Shown here: piece after piece, positions 10,131 through 21,511 of the stretch
How the letters are laid out: every line of letters starts with the position of its first letter
Position numbering within the stretch: the stretch's first letter is position 1
Notes under the pieces: generated by a model
The model's input: only the letters and a program-made list of their open reading frames with translations
What the model was told of the DNA's origin: nothing
Database searches by the model: none
Assembly: GCA_003971905.1 (NCBI GenBank)
Contig: RSEE01000010.1
Span: 310,001-374,000 of the forward strand
Origin: Moniliella sp. 'wahieum'
Lineage: Eukaryota
Direction of reading: 5' to 3'
Length of the DNA stretch: 64,000 nucleotides
Translations under genes and position numbers: made by a program

Positions 10131-13100
10131 TTAGAACAATCCCTGTACTTCGCCGTTAGCATCGAGGTCAATGTCGTAGTACCCCGGGCGAGTAGAGAGA
10201 CCAGGCATGGTCTGCATGGTACCCACGAGAGGGTAGATGAATCCCGCTCCAGCGGCCAACTTGACAGATCGAATGGGGAGGGTGAATCCCTCGGGGCGTC
10301 CCTTGAGAGTAGGGTCGTGGCTGAGCGAGAGATGCGTCTTAGCCATGCAGATAGGAAGGTGAGCGAACCCCTGTTGAGTGTACGTCGCAATCTGTTGTTG
10401 GGCAAGGGGGCTCAACTCAATCCCCTTGGCGCCGTACATCTCCGTGGCGATGGTATTGATCTTGTCCTGGATCGAAGCTTGGTCGTCATAGAGGAATTTG
10501 AACGAAGATGGGCTCTGTTCTAGCTGGTTAATGACGGCCTGAGCCAGCTCGAGAGCACCCTTGCCCCCTTCTTCCCAATGGTTGCTTGGCACTGCTGCGT
10601 CCGCTCCCGCCTTTAACGCCTCCTCCTGCACAGCTTTGATTTCCTCCTCAGAGTCAGTGGCGAAGCGGTTGATGGCGACAATCACTTTGAGGCCAAATTT
10701 CTTGGCATTCTCAATATGTTTGGCCAAGTTGACGCAACCTTGACGGGTCATCTCAACGTTCTCTTTGGTATAGACATCATCCAAAGGCTTGCCCGGCTTG
10801 ACCTCGGGACCTCCCCCGTGGGTCTTGAGTGCCCTTACGGTGGCCACAATGATCACCGCATCTGGTACAAGACCTGACTCGCGGCACTTGATGTTGCAGA
10901 ACTTCTCCATGCCAATGTCGGCACCAAACCCAGCCTCGGTCACCACATACCCCACCTGATCCGGTGAGTCCCCTTTCTCCAATCCGGCGAGTTTAAGCGC
11001 GATCGCATCGGCAAGGATGGAGCTGTTACCATGTGCAATGTTGGCGAAAGGACCGGCATGAACAAAGACCGGGGTGCCTTCGATCGTTTGCATCAGGTTC
11101 GGCTTGATCGCATCTTTCATCAGCACACCGTCAGGGCGCCCCCACAACCAATGTCGTCCGCCGTGATGGGTTCACCAGACTTGGACGTGGCCACAACCAT
11201 CTTGCCTAGACGTTCGCGCATGTCCTTCAAGTCCCGGGACAGTGCGAGGACAGCCATGCACTCCGACGCAACCGCAATATCAAACCCGGTCTCCCGAGTA
11301 AGCCCCTTCTCCGTTGGAGCCTTACCCACCGTGATCTGACGAAGATAACGGTCGTTCGTATCGACGACTCGGTGCCAGGTGATGGTTGAAGGGTCGATAT
11401 CGAGACGGGCAAAGCGAACGCGCTCCTCGGGGGTGAGGTCTTCGGGATCGGTCTTGTCAATGCCCAGTTTCTGAAGACGCTTCAGCATCACGGGGGCGAA
11501 GGAGCGCTTGCCATGCTTCTTAGGCACCAGGCGGTCGTAGAGAGCTCCATCCTTTTGCGTTGCCTCGTGGAACATGCGAGCATCAATAGCGGCAGCCAGA
11601 AGGTTGTTGGCAGCCGTGACAGCGTGGTTGTCACCCGTAAGGTGGAGGTTAAACTATGTAGCCAAGGTCAATATTCCAGCGGGAAAGGAATGGGCAAGCA
11701 ACGTACCTCCTCCATCGGGATAACCTGAGCAAATCCGCCACCGGCAGCGCCGCCTTTAATGCCGAACGTGGGGCCTTGGGAAGGTTGACGGACGCATGCG
11801 AACGCCGGCTTGCCCAAGTGAGCCCCCAGGGCTTGAACCAGACCGATAGTAGTAGTCGACTTGCCCTCTCCCAAGGGGGTGGGGGTGATTCCAGCAACGA
11901 CAATATACTTGCCATTGGAACGATGCTTGAGACGGTCGAGAATGTCAAGGGAAACCTTAGCCTTGATCTCCCCATACGGTTCGAGCTCCTCGGTGAGGAT
12001 CCCAACCTCATTGGCGATTTCAGCGATTGGACGGGGAATCTGGCTACGAGCCACCTCAATATCCGACGGAACCGGGTGGATCAACTTGATGGGGTTGGGC
12101 CTAGCCACGCCACGGCCGTTGTAGTGACCCTGTTCAAGACGACGCTGGGCGCCAATCAGCACATTCTCCATCAGGCAGGCAATCGTCATGGGCCCGACGC
12201 CTCCTGGCACGGGAGTGATCGCTCCAGCGACCTTGGAGGCCGAGGCAAAGTCAACGTCACCAACCAGACGGCGCCCACTCTTCTTGCTGGCGTCGGGAAC
12301 GTAGTTGATACCAACGTCAATCACGATCGCGCCAGGCTTGATCCAGTCGCCCTTGACAAACTCGGGTTTCCCCAAGGCTGCGATGACAATGTCGGCATTC
12401 CGAACGTGGGATGGCAGGTCTTTGGTCCTACTGTGGACTTGTGTGACAGTACAATTCTTGGAGCGCAGTAGACTCGACACAGGATTGCCCACAATGTCCG
12501 ACCGGCCAATCACAGTGGCTGTCAGACCGCTTAGGTCGTCCAAGCCAGCTTGCTTGAGGAGCTTCATGCACCCGGCCGGAGTGCAGGGCTGGAACAGTGG
12601 GTTGGCGGCCTTGGAACTGAGATGGCCAATGTTCAGAGCATGGAACCCGTCGACATCTTTTGTGGGAGAAACTTCCTCCGTCACCCTCCGCTCGGCATCT
12701 GCATCGATGTGGTCCCCAAGCGGAAGCTGAACCAATACGCCATGGACAGACGAATCCTGGTTGAGGAGGCGCACTTGCCGCCGAATCTCCTCCTCGGAAG
12801 CACCCTCAGGGAGCTGAACGTGCGTAGATTTGATTCCACATTCCTCAGCAGCCTTCATCTTGCCGCGAATGTATGTACTGCTGGCACTCTGCGAGCCAAC
12901 TTGGACAATGCAGACGGCAGGACGGAAAGCAGGGACGTCGGCTTGGATGTTCTGGATGGTTTGCTTGACCTGTTCGCGCGTCTTTTTGGCGAGTTCGGTG
13001 CCACTGATAAGGGATGCTCCTCCCTGGGACGTCAACGGTGCAGAAGCAGAAGTAGACGCTGCGTAGGCCCGCGCCGAAACACACACTGCCGTTCCCATAG

Positions 13101-13239
13101 CACCTAGGGCCGAGGGCGCTAGGCGGTGGCGGGCGGCCGAGACCAACAGCGGAGGCGCTCGACGCAAGCCACGCACGGCAAACTGTGCACGCAGTACAGC
13201 GCCAGCTGAACCAGATGCTCTGAAAGAGGGGCGAAGCAT
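10131..13239 (-). CDS. ADE3/MIS1: Trifunctional C1-tetrahydrofolate synthase with an N-terminal mitochondrial-type presequence
   Basis: Dehydrogenase/cyclohydrolase motifs ([22 protein letters not shown]) plus synthetase motifs ([33 protein letters not shown]). Intron 11654-11706. Frame change near 11128. Confidence 0.97.
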
Positions 13240-14438
13240 GCCGCACGTGGTGGAAAAGAAAGTGGCGATGGTGGTATTCGCTTGGGATTTGGTGAGTCGA
13301 GCGGACCAACACGGACTTTTGTGGTGTTGGAAAAAAAACCTTGCGGTCGTGACTGACACATTGCATGCGGAGCGCCTGCCCTGTGCTGCCGGATCCATGA
13401 TCATCGCATCGATCAAGTCCGTGCTCGCAATGGTGTAGGGTTATGGCAATCTATATCTAAGTGCATGGCAATGATATCATTTCCGAAGAGCGAGATGGCA
13501 GTGCTACACCAACCACCCTTGCCCTACCCTCTTGCGCCTGCAGTCGTTTGTAGCGGGTTTCGCACCACTTGTAGCTGGTAGTACCTTCAGCAGTTCTGTA
13601 CGCCCGGCGCCTTGTCCTGGTGCCCAAAAATCAGCTTAATCGGAGTGTGTGAACGACGGGGATGAGCAAAGAGGAAACATATGCGCAGTGGACGGCAGTA
13701 AATTTTTGAAAGGTGAGATCTGAGAGGGCAAGCATTTGCGGCCGTGTGTAGTATGCACCCGTTTCAAGAATCGTTTTCTTGAGGACATATGGGTCCATCT
13801 GCTGAATGGAATGCGCCAACTATACAAGCTTGGATCTCGCACAAATTATTGTATGGTGGAAAGCCCACAGACACCAGTGCTCCCATATGGCACGACTAGA
13901 GTGTTGTGTGCCCATCAGGTTTTGTCACAGAATTGAACTCACTACCTGACGAGCGCTGAGGACAACACGGAACAGCACTCTGTAGTAAATCCGGTAAAAG
14001 CTGTAGATGAAACCGTTGCGAGCGCGTGAGAGGTCAGCCTGATGTCGCATAATGACCTCACCCCGCTCGAGAGACACTCCATAACACCGGCAACGGATAT
14101 GAAGTTGGCTTGAATGGACCGGATATGACTCTGACTCAGTCTTCCCCCGCTTGGAGACAAGAAAAACGTGACGACATAGCTAATCGAAATTTCTAGTCAC
14201 AACGTTGCCGCCGATCTCGCCTCAAGGTGAGAAATTGATACCGTGAGTCTATGATTAGAAGTGCCACAACCCTGTACAAGAAAAGCTTGCGCAAGATGGT
14301 CGCCAAGGTCGAGACAATCTATACCCGACAGCTTGGCCCCAGGTTACCCCCACCTATCCCCACCTATCCCCGGACAGTCCGCAGCCTTGCTGGCAGGCTG
14401 GTGGCAAGGCTAGCCACAGATATTTTCACTAGGCTGGC

Positions 14439-14496
14439 GGCTAGGGTGGTGGCTAGGGTGGTGGCTAGGGTGGTGGCTAGGGTGATGGCTAGGGTG
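14439..14496 (+). repeat. Subterminal 12 bp tandem repeat (GGCTAGGGTGGT) x ~5
   Basis: Read directly from the sequence; about 260 bp inside the left TIR. Confidence 0.9.
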
Positions 14497-14672
14497 CCAC
14501 GATGCTATCAGATCAGGCAGTGGATTATCTTTAAAAGCATGCATTGCCATGGTTGTTTAGACACAGAGACGTAGAGGAGCGCCAAGGCAACGGCAGGTTG
14601 TTCGAGGAGCCTCGGGACGGCGGCAACCACAGAAGCTTTGCCTTCGTCGTTTAATCGCGGACCAAAAACATC

Positions 14673-17600
14673 ATGGGGACGCCGAGATGATAGGGATAGA
14701 AGGGCAAAGAACAAGAGCCATACAACTTGCGGCGTGGGGGCGAAGCGTCGTCGCGTTCGAGAGGGAGAATGAGTCCCGCAACCATACGGCGAACGATGAT
14801 CTGTGTGCAAGCCAGCACATGTTCTGTGGTCGTTTCCTCAACACTTGAGCGCCTTCTCCAATCATCCTGCTTAAAGGCGTTGTCAGTATATGGGCGGATA
14901 AGGACAAAGCGCAGGTACTGACCTGGCCGGGGAAACCGTCGCCGTCGACCGTCCGCTCGAAGCGCCCCCGTCGTTGATCTTCAACTCGCCTGCGGGAGGT
15001 ATGACCGGCATCTTGGCGCAAAGGATATCAGGGATCGCCAGGCGTTGCCGACTCGGTTCCGGTGGCTGCGCGTAGGTCAGTCAGTACGACAGGCATCCGC
15101 CCGGAGGGCGTGGACATACCGAGGCCAGGCGCTAGCACAGTAGCGCGTCGGCGGGGGGGCATATAATGGCAGCGCAACGAGCCGGACACATGTCACCAGC
15201 TCCGGTAGCACAGTGTGGCCAGCGAGAGAGGGGCGGTGGCGGTGGTGGTGGTAGTTGAGAGGCAAGAGCATCGGCGCAGCTGCGTGCGGTTATAGGCGCA
15301 ACCCCCGGTGGTCCACCGGCGGTCCACCCGCATGGCGCCAGTGTTGCCCCCGCACGCCACCGCCAGCTCAAGGCGCCCACCTGCAGCCTGGGCGTTTAGT
15401 ATATATATAGAGTTTTTTAAGCTACGCACTTGAGATAGTCGTGACGCGTGACAGCAGCTATATACAGCACTATACTCCAGTCCAACCGTCTCGTTGCGAG
15501 AGAAGACACATTCGCACAAGTCGCGGGCAAGAGCGAAGGGAAATTGCCTCTTTACTCGCTCAACAAAACTAAAAGGCAATCGAGAAGGTGTGCCCGCCTC
15601 GTGTGCATCGAGCAGATTGTATCAGGAGACGATGTACATTGGGTCTCCTTCGGGCGAGACCGCATTTTCCACCTCGTACATGTCCTCGAACTCGTCCATG
15701 CGCTCCAAGATGTCACAGTATCCCAATCCCTGGTCGCTCAGGGCGATGGTCCAACCCCTCAAGGACGGGTTCATTGAACAACCACACAAGGGACGATGGG
15801 ATCTGATCGGCACAAGGACTCAGCCGATGGTCATGGTCAATAAGCATCCACGCGATCTGGCTATTCACATGTACCTTGGCGAATCTGTTCCCCTGGTCGG
15901 CATTTTCGCGCCTATCTTTCCCGTCTTGTGGCAACGCGACGCTGATAGCGACTCCTGGTACGGGATCGGAATCGACCTGGTCCAAGACGAGACGTCCAAC
16001 CTGCTGAAGTTCACCGGCAAGAGAGGACACGCGCCTTCATTCTTACTCAGGTGGACATAACCAAGTTGCGCCTCTATGACGACTATACCATTGGTAAGTT
16101 TTTTCGCTCTTCACGCAGCGGCATTTTCTTGTCGGGTTGACTGATGACTTCCACATCCTGGTACGACACAGGAACAAGGGACGGTGAGGAAATTGGGAAG
16201 GGCGTCAATCCCCTTCGAGCCAAGACCTGTGGCCGAGCTCTGGTCTGTCTCCAGCTGGTGGGCTGGGCTGATGGTTTTGCAGGCAATGTGTCCAATCGGC
16301 CAAGCTCTCTGAACGGCATATGCTGCTGAACAACATGCACGTTTTACGGTTGTCGCAGTCTAGATGGGCAAAGAACCTTTTCCTCTTTGCATCGGAAACG
16401 GCCAAGTCTCTCTTCCCGTTGTGCGAGCAGTTGGTAAAACAGCTAGAGTGAGTATCGCAGTCTAGGCCAAGTTGCCTTTGAAGTCACCGTGATTCCTGGC
16501 AAAAGCAGCATGCTAACGTCTTTTTCGAACTTGCAGGCAGTATCACGAAGAGCTCATCCCTGTCTGGGATTCGACCACCGAGGGATGGATCCTGTTGTAC
16601 AGCCCGTGCTGCAGATGATAAAGGGCGACAACGTGGCCGCGAACGAGATGTGCTTCCATATGGACATGACTGCCCACGTGTGCTGCCGTTTTTGCGATTG
16701 CGGATGGCAACGGGGAACGAATATGTTGCCGGAGAACGCGGCTGACTGTCTGATGCGTATACGACACCACTGGTGTTACTGTTGTGCATCAAAATGGGAC
16801 TGACTATTACCGGCGGACACATCAAGTCGGAAGGCGATCTACATTCAAGTGTCGAAACTAGCCGCGAAGTCGATCACCAACTCGACATGGTCGTCAAGAA
16901 CGACGGCCGTGTCGACGACCGGGCGAGCCAGACCGGGGTTAAGTATATGAAAGACGTATCCTTTATCCTGTTCAAGTCCCGCAAGACTCTGGAGGACTCA
17001 GCAGGGGCGACGAATGGCAAGAAGCGCAAGAGGCTGCTTTCCAATTTGTACTCCGGCGTTCGTGAGCTGCTGGATGGGTTCAAGAATAACGGCTACGTGT
17101 TCAACCCCCTTTTGACTGTCCACGAATGGCAGGGGTGCTCGAGTTTCTCGGTCGGCAACAAGAGCCTGGCGATCGACGTCATGCACACAGTTCTCCTTGG
17201 GCCAGTCAAGGCCTCGATCGAGCTGCTGACGGACTCGAACTTCGACAAGGGGCCCTCGCTAGCGCTGTGGCTGGATTCGCTCTCAACTCGTGGGTATGGA
17301 ATCGGTGGGTCGACGGCTCAATGGCACTAAAGTGGTTCACAGCATGCGCTCAGTCACGGGGGTTGACTACAAGATATTGTGCCAGACTCTCCCTCTGGTG
17401 CTGCCCAACTTGGCGGCCACGCTACGGTTGGACTCCGCCAAGCCTGGCGTCACGGAAACGGCGCGACAGAGACTTCTGAGCAAGATTGAGAGGCTGGAGA
17501 ATGTCCGCAAGAGCATTGTGGCCGCCACACGCATTAAGTGGTTTGCTACATCGATGGCTTCGCACTTCAAGACCGGGCTACATATGGCGTACGTCTGAAA

Positions 17601-19030
17601 CTGTTAGCTCTCATGGGCCCGTGATCATCTCTCTAGTCCAAGTTCACAGCTTACATTTTGCCCCTACATATGTGCCCACAGGAACTGCTTGACAAGGCGG
17701 TGATTCACATTTTCATGGCCATCGCTGCCATCGACCCGGCCATGCTCGTTCGTCGCCCCAAGTTCCACCTTCAGAGTCACCTCTCCAGCAGGCGCTGTTG
17801 TGGGGTCCTCTCAAGAACGCTGACACACAGCGTGAGGAGGAGTTTGTCCGCGTCATGCGCAAGGCGGTCATATTTACGAACCGCAAAAAGATATTTGCCA
17901 TGACTTGAACTACAAGATAACAGCCCAGAGAACCTGCAAAACCTGCTATGTGGAGGGCGGGCAATCGACATGCCGCTTGCAAAACTCGTGCCCCGCGATA
18001 CAACCCCTGATGATGAAAAGGGGAGGAGGTGACACAGGGTTTGCCCGGTGGGAACACCAAGAAATTGTCCGCAGACGTCTGGATCGGCAGGGGCCCAGCA
18101 GATTTTTGCAATTGAATGTTACACCACCTCAGGCTGGCACGACGATTCAGCTCTTGGGCCAAGGGCTTGGCAGTGTGTGGCAAGTCCCTCCCGCACCCGG
18201 TACGGGCCGCAACAGCCCTTCCAGCGCTGCATCGTGTCCGGCTTCGATCCAGACTGTGGCTAAGGCCAAAGTCATATCGGTGCACGACAAGATGGGGCTT
18301 CCTGAACCAATGACAGCAGAGGGGTGTTCTGCCACTGGGCCGGTCGAAGATATTGTCGACATGCCGTTGGTCCGCGTACAGCATGGCCAGCTTTGTGCTA
18401 GGGGGGACTGGGTGCTTGTTGCCCAACAGGATATTGGTGAAGTCCTCCCACCCCGCCATGCCCAGAATCCTGATACGCCGCCCTTCTCCATTGGCCGGAT
18501 AGAACACATTGCCGCCCAACGGCCTAATATGTGGTTGCTGTGCACCGGCGGGCCAATCCGACTCTCGCGAGGGGGGTCGGGAGCAGCGAGGACTGGTTCC
18601 AACCTTGTGCTCCCTGTGCTTTGGGTCAAGGTCGCTTTGGCTCGCATCATGCCTATCGACTCGGCATATGACATGCGAGGCCTGGAGCTACCGCGCGTCC
18701 GCCCGACGCATGACTTACATTCCGGCTTCGCAGATCCACACCATCTTTGGCCCGCTTAACGTCCAGCACAATTGCGTGAAGGCCAAAAAGTGCCGGGTTG
18801 TCCCCAACAGCATTACGGATACAACCACTGGCTTGACGTCCGATGGGCTCCAGCACAACTTGTCTGCGACGTCGGCGTACAGCGCTACTTGCTCAACCAC
18901 TTTTCAACTCTGTCTCTCTCCCCACACCGATATTCTGCGACTTGGGGACTTGGCTTTTGCCCAGGACTGGGCGGTCGAGGGTGAGAATGTCCCTTCTGCG
19001 ACGATGTATTGGAGGCAGTACAATCCGTAA
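14673..19030 (+). pseudogene. Interrupted, intron-containing transposase (EnSpm/CACTA-like fungal family)
   Basis: Colinear fragments VCLQLVGWADGFAGNVS, IKGDNVAANEMCFH..CCRFC, NPLL..DVMHTVLLGPVK, GVDYKILCQTLP, RPKFHL, DTQREEEFVRVMR..FTN, GDWVLV..IGRIEHI, NVQHNC..KC and YLLNHF. Likely introns at about 16094-16170, 16449-16536 and 17589-17680. Many frame breaks; start and end are approximate. Confidence 0.72.
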
Positions 19031-19921
19031 TGAACCTTTAGATCCTTCCCGAATGGCCACTAATGATGGTAGTCACCACTGTTGATGTATACTCTACACC
19101 ATCAGTCTATCAGTTTTTAACGATTTGGCTGAAAGCGGACACAGCACGTGTGGCTGTCCAAAGATTGCCAAATTGCTGCGGGAGTCTTAGGCTCCAATGG
19201 TGCAACGGCCAATTCCTACTGTTGGCTGGAGAAACCTCAGGTTCAATTCGTGGGTGGGCCATCTTTTTAAGATGGCTCGAGGCTGGCCGCCGTTCACAAT
19301 ATTGTGATTAGAATAGCGGGCAAGGTTGTGACGAACTTTATAGGCAGCAATCTAGGGACAACCTCGCTGGGCGGCCTTGCCGCAGTGTGGTCCAAGAGGT
19401 TGGGGCTAGCTGTGTTGGCGAGGCTGTGACAAGGTTGTGCCCCTCAAATCTAAAGACAAGCTGTGGTGTGGCCGGCAAGGTTCTGGGCTAGAAATTTCGA
19501 TTAGCTATGGAGATTCATGCTGTGAGAGGTGAAGAGAAGGGCAGATGTATACCGAGAGGACGAGGGACGATGCAGGGCTTTGGGTTAATCTGGGTTCGAG
19601 CCTTGTTTGCAGCATTAGTTGGGCATTGGCACTGGTAGTCATCGGTTTTTGCTTACATTGAGAACCAGACTTCAAGGAGTGGCATTTCCTTTCGTCCGAC
19701 CTGGAGAACCGACATGTGAAACCCTTACTAGTAGTACTTAGTCCACAGTGAGTATCAGATGCTGACCGCTTTCTACTGGAAGGTTACATAAACGCTCACG
19801 CTGAATGGCGTGTAGGAGATGCAGTATAATTACACAAAATGTCATGAAGAGTCCTTGGAGATTGGGAGCGGGAGGGGATGGAGAGTAAGGAAAAAAGGTT
19901 CATAGGAAAGAAGCGTAATAC

Positions 19922-21511
19922 TTAATGGGGGCAAATGGAATCGGGTCCCGCGTCGGGAAAGAGACCATACCTTTCCGACGAGTCGGGCACATACCAAAAA
20001 ACCACGGCCGCGATGATCCAGCAACACATGAGAATGTACCCCTCTAGCCAGTTAGCTCTCCCATCCGAAATGGCCGAGTTGACAATCAGAACGGAGATGA
20101 AAAGGAAAATTGAGACAAAGGGATCGAAGAGGAGGCTGAGAGGTTTGTTTCCACACCAGGCGATCACCACACACAGTGGGATCACAAAGATAGATATTTG
20201 GATGGAGGATCCCACTGCCACGCCCATTGAGAGGTCCAGCTTGTTTTTTACAGCGACCGTGACCGCCGTGACGTGTTCGGTCGCATTTGAGACGATGGGC
20301 AGGATGATCAATCCGATCCACGTCCGCGACGCACCTGAGGCGGCTACCGCATCGATCGAATCGACAAGCCATTCGCACGTGACGCCAACCAAAGCCGTCG
20401 AGACACAGAGCGTACCAAACGCCACCCACGACGAAATTTGGGGCGTCACCTCGTCCTCATCCTCGCCCTCTTCCCCATCTGCCTTTGTCTCGGCTTTCCC
20501 ACCCTCGAACATGTACTTGTGAGAGGAGAGGGTGAAGTACAAGTACGCCAGATACACGGTGAGGATGATCACACTGACACCCCTGGAGAATTGGAGGACC
20601 TTCAAGCGCTCCGACGGGTCGGGAATGTTGGGACCCAGGATCGCATGGTATCCCGGTGGAGTGAGAATGGATAGGGTGGCCATGACGAGTAGACTTGAGT
20701 TGAGCTGGGCCGCAGAGGCATGGAATCGCTGTTCCTTGTATTTGATTCCACCAGCAAAGAAACACATACCCAAGACAAGAAGCAAGTTGGAGAGCACACT
20801 GCCTACAAGTGAGTTTTGGACAATGCCCAATTGACATTGAAAGAGGGCAATAATAGCCGTGATGAGTTCTACTGCGTTGCCCAGTGTCGCATTGAGAAGT
20901 CCACCCAACGTATCGCCCACTCTCAGAGCAATCTCCTCGGTACCAAAAGCCAATAGTTGAGCCAGCGGTACGATGGCGAGAAAAGCGACAACAAAAACGG
21001 CCACACCATGAGTTTTGCGGTCGTGGGAATCTTCGGGCTTGCCCGCGTCTTGCGAATCAAAGGCGAAGTGCAAGGCCCAGGAGATGGGGATGCACAACAA
21101 GAGCACGTTTAGCCAGCTCAAAAAAACTACGTACTTGATACTCTCCCAGTGTCCGGGGGACGGTGCCACAGGGCGATCGGGGGTTAGAAGCTCAGTAGCT
21201 GTGCGACCCAAGCGATGGGTGCTAAAAAAGCTGTCGGCCGTCGCGCGGCGCGGGATTCCAGCCCCTGGACCACCCAAGCCGGGGGGACCAATGCTGTCAA
21301 CGCCGGTACCGATACGTTGAGGCGTATAGATGTGGGGTGGGGGGAGGATGGAGGTCAGATGGGCGCGCGAATTGGTTGCTGCTGTGGTTGTGGTTGTGGT
21401 GGCAGTGACAGTGGCATTGGCATTGACGCTGGCATACGCGCCTGCGCCTGCGTTGAGGTCCTCGATACACGGGGGGTAAGGCTTGGTCGACACACGTGGG
21501 GGGAAGTGCAT
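19922..21511 (-). CDS. VCX1: Vacuolar Ca2+/H+ exchanger (CAX family)
   Basis: Intronless 529 aa ORF with alpha-repeat motifs GGLLNATLGNAVE and LPIVSNATEH, plus LVGSVLSNLLLVLG, VGSSIQI, DGRANWLEG and an acidic central loop. Confidence 0.96.
   Translation of the reverse strand: MHFPPRVSTKPYPPCIEDLNAGAGAYASVNANATVTATTTTTTAATNSRAHLTSILPPPHIYTPQRIGTGVDSIGPPGLGGPGAGIPRRATADSFFSTHRLGRTATELLTPDRPVAPSPGHWESIKYVVFLSWLNVLLLCIPISWALHFAFDSQDAGKPEDSHDRKTHGVAVFVVAFLAIVPLAQLLAFGTEEIALRVGDTLGGLLNATLGNAVELITAIIALFQCQLGIVQNSLVGSVLSNLLLVLGMCFFAGGIKYKEQRFHASAAQLNSSLLVMATLSILTPPGYHAILGPNIPDPSERLKVLQFSRGVSVIILTVYLAYLYFTLSSHKYMFEGGKAETKADGEEGEDEDEVTPQISSWVAFGTLCVSTALVGVTCEWLVDSIDAVAASGASRTWIGLIILPIVSNATEHVTAVTVAVKNKLDLSMGVAVGSSIQISIFVIPLCVVIAWCGNKPLSLLFDPFVSIFLFISVLIVNSAISDGRANWLEGYILMCCWIIAAVVFWYVPDSSERYGLFPDAGPDSICPH

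Follow-up and report, generated by a model that had tools for sequence, protein, structure and literature searches.

Within a 64,000-nucleotide window of the Moniliella sp. 'wahieum' genome (contig RSEE01000010.1, positions 310,001 to 374,000), we identify a full-length, 5,335-bp transposon with CATAG..CTATG ends (14175..19509), which we consider with high confidence to be a non-autonomous copy, in a basidiomycete genome, of a cut-and-paste element from the CMCT clade (CACTA/EnSpm-Mirage-Chapaev-Transib and allies). The family represented by this copy is a CMCT variant that is new in its CATAG ends, its relaxed 2-bp target and its young miniature inverted-repeat transposable element (MITE), while CAT ends alone are unsurprising. 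More interesting than these ends is a context-biased load of 2-bp (+2) duplications carried by the copies.

The terminal inverted repeats (TIRs) are 100% complementary over 22 nt, as described in a first-pass annotation of the window, and the imperfect extension to about 37 bp that it reported is recovered as pairing over ~36-37 nt once one gap is allowed. At up to 3 mismatches, the 22-nt TIR has 2 matches in the window, both of them element ends, and 0 in 100 shuffles. A 12-bp subterminal motif occurs once at the left end, where it is likely to be a transposase-binding site, and four times at the right end; the copies at 14198, 19319, 19428 and 19474 had been recognized before, and we add a weaker one at 19417. 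GA is present at both flanks, again as first reported. A single such pair would arise by chance about once in 16 cases, so the target-site duplication (TSD) is decided by the family as a whole, and we accept a 2-bp TSD because exact duplications recur across long copies and MITEs.

The family was searched for in the window's own 69.5-Mb assembly (75 matches, with 40 of 62 candidates scored), and the copy numbers are therefore lower bounds. The genome-wide TIR search proposed in the first-pass annotation was productive: with at most 2 mismatches, the TIR pattern has 114 matches in the whole assembly versus 0 for a reversed control, and other TIR-bounded copies with tabulated TSDs were found. 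We observe at least 10 end-to-end copies at 92-100% identity, including that of the window, and further long copies such as L011, which has an internal deletion, and L012, at 77% identity, bring the total of long copies to at least 12. A 3.6-kb deletion subfamily lacks the 3' half of the transposase gene. Twenty loci were extracted, and both ends are visible in 17. Exact 2-bp TSDs flank 10 of these 17 (GA, TA five times, TG, TC, TT and GG; p 1e-8 against 1 in 16), and none has a TSD of 3 bp or more. Among the older copies, L010, L012, L013, L016 and L019 have a lost or altered terminal C or G and no clean TSD, some of the changes being C-to-T.

The same ends are shared by a MITE of 111-120 bp (~117 bp) with CATAG/CATGG TIRs (L051-L100; 40 of 80 candidates scored), five copies of which are identical and which accounts for many of the 114 TIR matches. 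Of 38 distinct MITE sites examined, 32 retain intact ends, and an exact 2-bp duplication is found in 29 of these 32, the sites representing 9 of 10 dinucleotide classes; a 3-bp match occurs at 1 of the 32, within a G run. The TSD is 2 bp and is not fixed in sequence. Over 39 sites, the target consensus is W-N-N-C-[NN]-G-N-N-W: A/T occupies 64 of the 78 positions at ±4 (background 46%), C-1/G+1 is found in 34 of 78 (background 27%), a pyrimidine-purine step occurs at 23 of 39 sites and TA at 11 of 39. This bias, together with the pyrimidine-purine steps, suggests a bendable target. The MITE ends are closer to the L012-type subfamily than to the window copy.

The transposase gene is recognizable along the plus strand. 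Profiles of homologues match the window copy in seven ordered pieces (best E 6.6e-15), with no piece on the minus strand, and four GT-AG introns are placed from gaps in this profile map and from the alignment of copies (Table 1). The motifs named in the first-pass annotation follow one another on the plus strand, in three frames and in the order originally given: WADG (16264-16275), GDN (16624-16632), DVMHTVLLG (17175-17201), PKFH (17757-17768) and REEEF (17831-17845). WADG, GDN and the second E of REEEF occupy the DDxSG, DNP and ERFESFN columns of the homologue family, while CxxC, H and HxxxH fall after the second D and ahead of the E (CRFC at 16684, DVMH at 17175 and PKFHxxxH at 17757). The gene thus carries the D, D and E set with C(2)C and three-histidine motifs, in which the first D is weak alone.

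In Pfam, no transposase family was found in 13 window frames (12 of them within the element), 4 sibling frames or 13 further proteins. Both families named in the first-pass annotation therefore failed to appear in the element: Transposase_21 (PF02992) is touched only below threshold, by 6 of 13 homologues (best E 0.0015; 18.3 bits versus a cut-off of 28.6), and Plavaka has no match at E up to 1 in the 13 homologues or the element's frames. A word-index search using the window's 176-aa frame returned 0 of 1267 candidates, and a search of the PDB by sequence with the L011 frame or with profile A1 gave no meaningful match. A phmmer search with a 315-residue L011 frame against 1.84 billion representatives yields 12 proteins at E ≤0.001, the best at E 1.9e-11; the family motifs are present in 11, and the remaining one is an unrelated propeller. 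Ten of the relatives were looked up; all are unnamed proteins, seven from Tilletia and the others from Mycena, Plicaturopsis and Sporobolomyces. Scoring 8000 candidates against a broader profile gives 296 relatives with E 1e-20 or better; the matches listed (120 of 296) come from mushroom-forming fungi and allies or are without a name, and none bears a Puccinia or Cryptococcus name. By sequence, the transposase belongs to a widespread, unnamed basidiomycete family.

The predicted structure of one homologue, P0001 of Tilletia (pLDDT 74.7), has RAG1 as its top Foldseek match (E 3e-4). In VIA-align, this model gives RAG1 a Z of 15.4 (root-mean-square deviation 4.3, 364 residues aligned), followed by BbRAGL (14.6), the P element (12.2) and HzTransib (9.8), with the first unrelated structure at 7.5. 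The homologue is thus predicted to fold like RAG1/Transib. An AlphaFold model of the 315-aa L011 frame itself is of low confidence (pLDDT 63, pTM 0.52), lacks RNase-H strands and returns only generic helical matches (Z ≤7.4).

To establish the condition of the gene, the window copy was compared with the majority of 12 copies, from which it differs by 21 frame-shifting differences in the inferred exons. We set aside three of these, namely a 7-bp stretch inserted in other copies and two gaps that together amount to an in-frame deletion. The remaining 18 breaks consist of 8 private deletions, which may be assembly errors, and 10 that are shared with sibling copies on other contigs. Eight of the shared breaks are +2 insertions, all of which are also present in L002 and seven, exactly, in L003, and both siblings lie at other sites with their own TSDs. 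Frameshifts shared by separately inserted siblings imply that the copies spread after the gene broke and were moved in trans. The window copy is therefore non-autonomous: its gene was frameshifted before insertion, and it was moved by transposase supplied in trans. Each of the 12 copies has at least 5 frame-shifting differences. That the gene was once under selection follows from the divergence between L011 and L012, which is concentrated at codon position 3 (20/21/62 substitutions at positions 1/2/3), whereas the recent divergence among close copies is neutral (8/8/7, 7/6/11 and 8/6/6). L011 was considered as an intact master copy and rejected, as L011 and L004-L009 have in common a 7-bp insertion located where the first catalytic exon ends. 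This shared insertion maps to window position 16446 and resembles part of a TTAGGG-type telomere repeat, possibly added at a repaired break.

The clearest challenge to this account is that the copy is autonomous and intact and that its frame breaks are long-read assembly errors. Private 1-bp deletions are indeed frequent (106 in 11 copies), five otherwise identical MITEs differ by a single base lost within a run, and the private deletions of the window copy could be of the same kind. Yet more than half of its breaks recur at the same position on other contigs, the donor of intron 3 is GT in L004-L011 but AT in the window copy, L002 and L003 alike, and recent substitutions are evenly distributed among codon positions, so that we give this explanation almost no credence. 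Of the first-pass description, the full length and the introns (four are inferred) hold, but the gene is not potentially intact, and polishing cannot restore the frame because the breaks are shared. A different objection is that the element is an ordinary CACTA/EnSpm proper (Tnp2, PF02992) with a one-base change at its terminus. Its CA..TG ends, subterminal repeats and C(2)C and H(3)H motifs would fit EnSpm, and Transposase_21 is touched by homologues; however, every such score is under the cut-off, no second EnSpm-type open reading frame was recognized, and the TSD is 2 bp, whereas fungal EnSpm elements are characterized by CAC ends and 3-bp TSDs in the available text of PMC12730594. We consider this assignment very unlikely, and what we retain of the original CACTA/EnSpm-like label is that the element is multi-copy, of the cut-and-paste type and within the CMC(T) clade, but not EnSpm proper. 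Several points also weigh against our own identification. No intact transposase with CATAG ends is present among the 12 long copies and 75 scored protein candidates, an exact TSD is absent in 7 of the 17 two-ended long copies, and no empty site was found, the assembly holding no allelic copy of the flanks and the best flank matches being 74-80% paralogues. Moreover, the RAG1-like fold is modeled on a Tilletia homologue that is 28-31% identical, rather than on the element's own protein.

A search with P0001 revealed a young sister family that has a transposase of the same group (22% identical over 283 residues). Its members are 9.2-9.6 kb, and five copies are 99.1-99.7% identical with long open frames (L126-L130 and L150-L184, including G000 C16:523455-533033; a 23-bp subterminal tandem array and 3.6-4.5-kb derivatives are also found). 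The ends are CACGG..CCGTG (41 end matches versus 2 for a control), and non-specific 2-bp duplications flank 6 of 7 paired copies (GG, TT, CT, TA, GA and GA). Its TIR departs from the CATAG TIR after the first two bases, and the sister family is therefore no obvious helper for the window element. In a tree of 27 core sequences, both families are on long branches and their branching is not resolved. At C2:813637 (L083/L052), a CATAG-type MITE sits within a CACGG-type derivative. The CACGG copies L126 and L129 (C16 and C153) have a common right flank and different left flanks, which points either to a chimeric assembly or to a rearrangement that went through the element. Within the same transposase group there is also a third family, now decayed (L131 and L132); it lies inside a 10-kb stretch of C127 and C44 that is duplicated at 91-94%.

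Distinct, cleanly aligned insertions were counted by length. In 11 copies of the CATAG family, those of 1, 2 and 3 bp number 19, 40 and 11, and in the sister family, where 15 decayed end segments were used, they number 7, 13 and 5; the excess of 2-bp over 1-bp insertions has a p of 0.004 in the former and 0.13 in the latter. The 40 +2 insertions divide into 21 clean one-to-two duplications, 6 that are ambiguous in register, 9 in existing repeats and 4 non-duplications. Around clean duplications, and against a null matched on dinucleotide, C-1/G+1 occurs at 26 of 42 positions in the CATAG family (null 16.9, p 0.004), at 9 of 14 in the sister family (null 4.6, p 0.008) and at 35 of 56 when both are pooled (21.6 expected, p 0.0002). 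This C-NN-G context points to an enzyme with a 2-nt staggered cut, and both the excess of 2-bp insertions and their context are new here. All nine +3 insertions that are not duplications (9/9) read XY-(A/T)-XY, resembling a 2-bp duplication plus one base, and the P-nucleotide rule fits the extra base in 5 of the 9.

We lean, by a small degree, toward the +2 tandem duplications being excision footprints of this genome's 2-bp-TSD elements. Within that reading, the CACGG-ended sister family or others are the more likely source, rather than the CATAG family: at the ends of the sister family, position -1 is C in 17 of 30 cases and there is no ±4 bias, which makes it a better fit. Ordinary replication slippage would account for the 9 of 40 insertions that lie within existing repeats, and short insertions are often tandem duplications in general. 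Slippage nevertheless sits poorly with the predominance of 2-bp over 1-bp insertions, with the half or so of the +2 events that are clean one-to-two duplications, with a C-NN-G bias that survives dinucleotide matching in each family separately, and with the uniform form of the +3 insertions; we regard it as unlikely. To the same extent, we doubt a host enzyme with a 2-nt stagger, Spo11 or a relative, acting before fill-in and end joining. According to the part of bioRxiv 10.1101/2019.12.18.881268 available to us, Spo11 leaves 2-nt 5' overhangs and favors cutting 3' of C, from which C-NN-G would follow by symmetry, and duplications without the ±4 bias of the CATAG family also fit Spo11-like breaks; against such an origin, two recently mobile families in this very genome have 2-bp TSDs and a C-1 bias. 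The footprint reading has difficulties of its own. The polarity of insertions was set against the majority or a young copy, with a few sites entering the counts twice. Perfect footprints are rare in rice (8 of 94 in the accessible portion of PMC4423477). In a control 7.9-kb duplicated region, there are 2 clean duplications per 380 substitutions, and 0 per 145 in its transposase remnant, so that the +2 process is not uniform. Finally, clean duplications are without the ±4 A/T bias (22 of 56 versus 64 of 78 at CATAG targets, p 5e-7), and by this test the CATAG family was rejected as the sole source of the +2 scars.

The chemistry of RAG and Transib is established. By analogy with it, the enzyme would bind the TIR and subterminal motif and cut each end, the flank would probably be closed as a hairpin after cutting, and the ends would be joined to a target with a 2-nt stagger. 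Excisions of 2-bp-TSD elements would then leave the +2 duplications that broke the transposase gene. A broader proposal, which we advance tentatively and hold to be somewhat less probable than its negation, is that an ESTA/CNEST-related CMCT lineage in this fungus lost TA specificity and that its clean +2 footprints are frequent enough to be a leading cause of frameshift death in transposase genes, including those of its own lineage. If this is true, dead copies would record in readable form the traffic of insertions and excisions, and also a RAG-like enzyme after whose excisions repair yields an exact target duplication. Should the +2 scars be footprints, the small-indel spectrum of this genome would be shaped by transposon excision, which would also limit the elements themselves. 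The CATAG-ended, non-specific 2-bp-TSD family and its young MITE enlarge a RAG1-like transposase group that is found widely among basidiomycetes (296 proteins at E 1e-20 or better); no Pfam model covers this group, and most of its members are annotated as hypothetical. With its CACGG sister, the CATAG family offers a natural comparison for the gain and loss of TA specificity in CMCT elements.

Table 1. Features of the element in window coordinates; exons and introns of the transposase gene are inferred.
Feature	Position	Strand	Basis
Left TSD, GA	14173..14174	.	Flank and family-wide TSD count
Left TIR, 22 bp, begins CATAG; imperfect extension to ~14211	14175..14196	+	
Left subterminal 12-bp motif, inverted copy of right-hand motifs	14198..14209	+	
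12-bp tandem array, unit number differs among copies	14429..14496	+	
7-bp insertion, TGA + 4-bp palindrome + TGA; only in window copy and L002	15440..15453	+	
202-codon open frame and continuation, probably 5' exon of transposase	15452..16093	+	No Pfam or significant profile match
Intron 1, GT..AG	16094..16171	+	Alignment of copies
Exon with NPLR (16207) and candidate first catalytic Asp in WADG (D at 16270-16272)	16172..16447	+	E 0.03, weak alone
Intron 2, GT at 16448, AG at 16536 or 16540	16448..16540	+	Profile map and alignment of copies
Exon with GDN, its D (16627-16629) being the candidate second catalytic Asp, and with CRFC (16684-16695) as C(2)C motif	16541..16752	+	Profile map
Intron 3	16753..16826	+	Profile map and alignment of copies
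Exon, helical insertion domain, DVMHTVLLG (17175-17201)	16827..17588	+	E 6.6e-15 and 1e-6 over six frames
Intron 4, GT..AG	17589..17636	+	Profile map and alignment of copies
Last exon with PKFHxxxH = H(3)H (17757), candidate catalytic Glu as second E of REEEF (17837-17839) and C-terminal HxC (18758); many frameshifts	17637..19030	+	
Eight +2 exon insertions shared with siblings, near 16316, 16592, 17279, 17884, 18015, 18101, 18529 and 18561	16316..18562	+	
Right subterminal motifs at 19319, 19417, 19428 and 19474	19319..19485	-	
Right TIR, 22 bp	19488..19509	-	
Right TSD, GA	19510..19511	.	Flank and family-wide TSD count

The element is bracketed by two minus-strand host genes, one at 10131-13440, which is presumably a C1-tetrahydrofolate synthase-like gene, and the other a calcium exchanger (PF01699). 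For both flanking genes (window 12000-13030 and 19944-21310), paralogues of 74-80% identity exist on C17, and on C13 and C61, a hint that the genome may be an old hybrid or may have been duplicated long ago. A scan against Rfam gave 0 matches. Insertions of 7 bp of the TNA + 4-bp palindrome + TNA type, such as that of the window copy (Table 1), are also seen in the CACGG copies L159-L178 and in L131.

Among known systems, RAG1, ProtoRAG and Transib have a catalytic-core fold that is shared by the modeled homologue at ~11% identity (Z as above, 15.4, 14.6 and 9.8). These differ from the CATAG family in having a 5-bp TSD and CAC ends. With CACTA/EnSpm, the element shares CA..TG ends, subterminal repeats, common motifs and the sub-threshold PF02992 matches of its homologues, and it differs in having CATAG ends and a 2-bp TSD rather than CAC(T) ends and 3 bp, with PF02992 below cut-off. 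The CMCT clade as a whole is described, in the portion of Kojima 2025 (PMC12730594) available, by a D-D-E triad accompanied by the motifs C(2)C and H(3-4)H, by CA..TG ends and by TSDs of 2-5 bp. Our element has CA..TG ends, a 2-bp TSD and the D-D-E and C(2)C/H(3-4)H motifs, and a RAG1/Transib-like fold is predicted for homologue P0001. Compared by the descriptions of ends and TSDs, the CATAG family differs in one or the other from each of EnSpm, ESTA, CNEST and PlavakaB, and in the literature searched neither CATAG-ended fungal elements nor genome-wide +2 footprints are described.

The first-pass annotation had called the CAT end atypical, and CATAG is indeed unlike the ends of the named lineages compared, although CAT itself has a precedent in PlavakaB. 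In the available text of the same source (PMC12730594), PlavakaB has CATCA..TGATG ends and a TSD of 2-3 bp; the CAT..ATG ends and variable 2-3-bp TSD are alike, but only the first three bases agree between CATCA and CATAG, and no Pfam Plavaka match is found in the element or its 13 homologues. CNEST of Cryptococcus neoformans, as far as the accessible part of PMC12810828 describes it, is a 7.2-kb active element with TA duplications and 33-bp CACGG TIRs. Likened by description rather than by protein, it resembles our element as a fungal CMC transposase without a Repbase hit and with a 2-bp TSD, and its CACGG ends match those of the sister family, whereas its TA-specific TSD, CACGG ends, 7.2-kb length and activity set it apart from the CATAG family. 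The ESTA elements, for which the consulted portion of PMC12730594 gives TA TSDs and CAC starts in 77/77 consensus starts examined, are likewise CMCT elements of basidiomycetes found via their likeness to RAG1, with a 2-bp TSD and CA..TG ends. They differ in their TA TSD, as opposed to any dinucleotide here (TA in 11/39, 9 classes), in CAC versus CATAG ends, and in being mostly 7-14 kb rather than 5.3 kb. The start of the sister family, CACGGGCGGG, resembles that of ESTA families starting CACGGCGGG, and because the sister family has CACGG ends, our best guess is a position near ESTA/CNEST within the CMCT clade.

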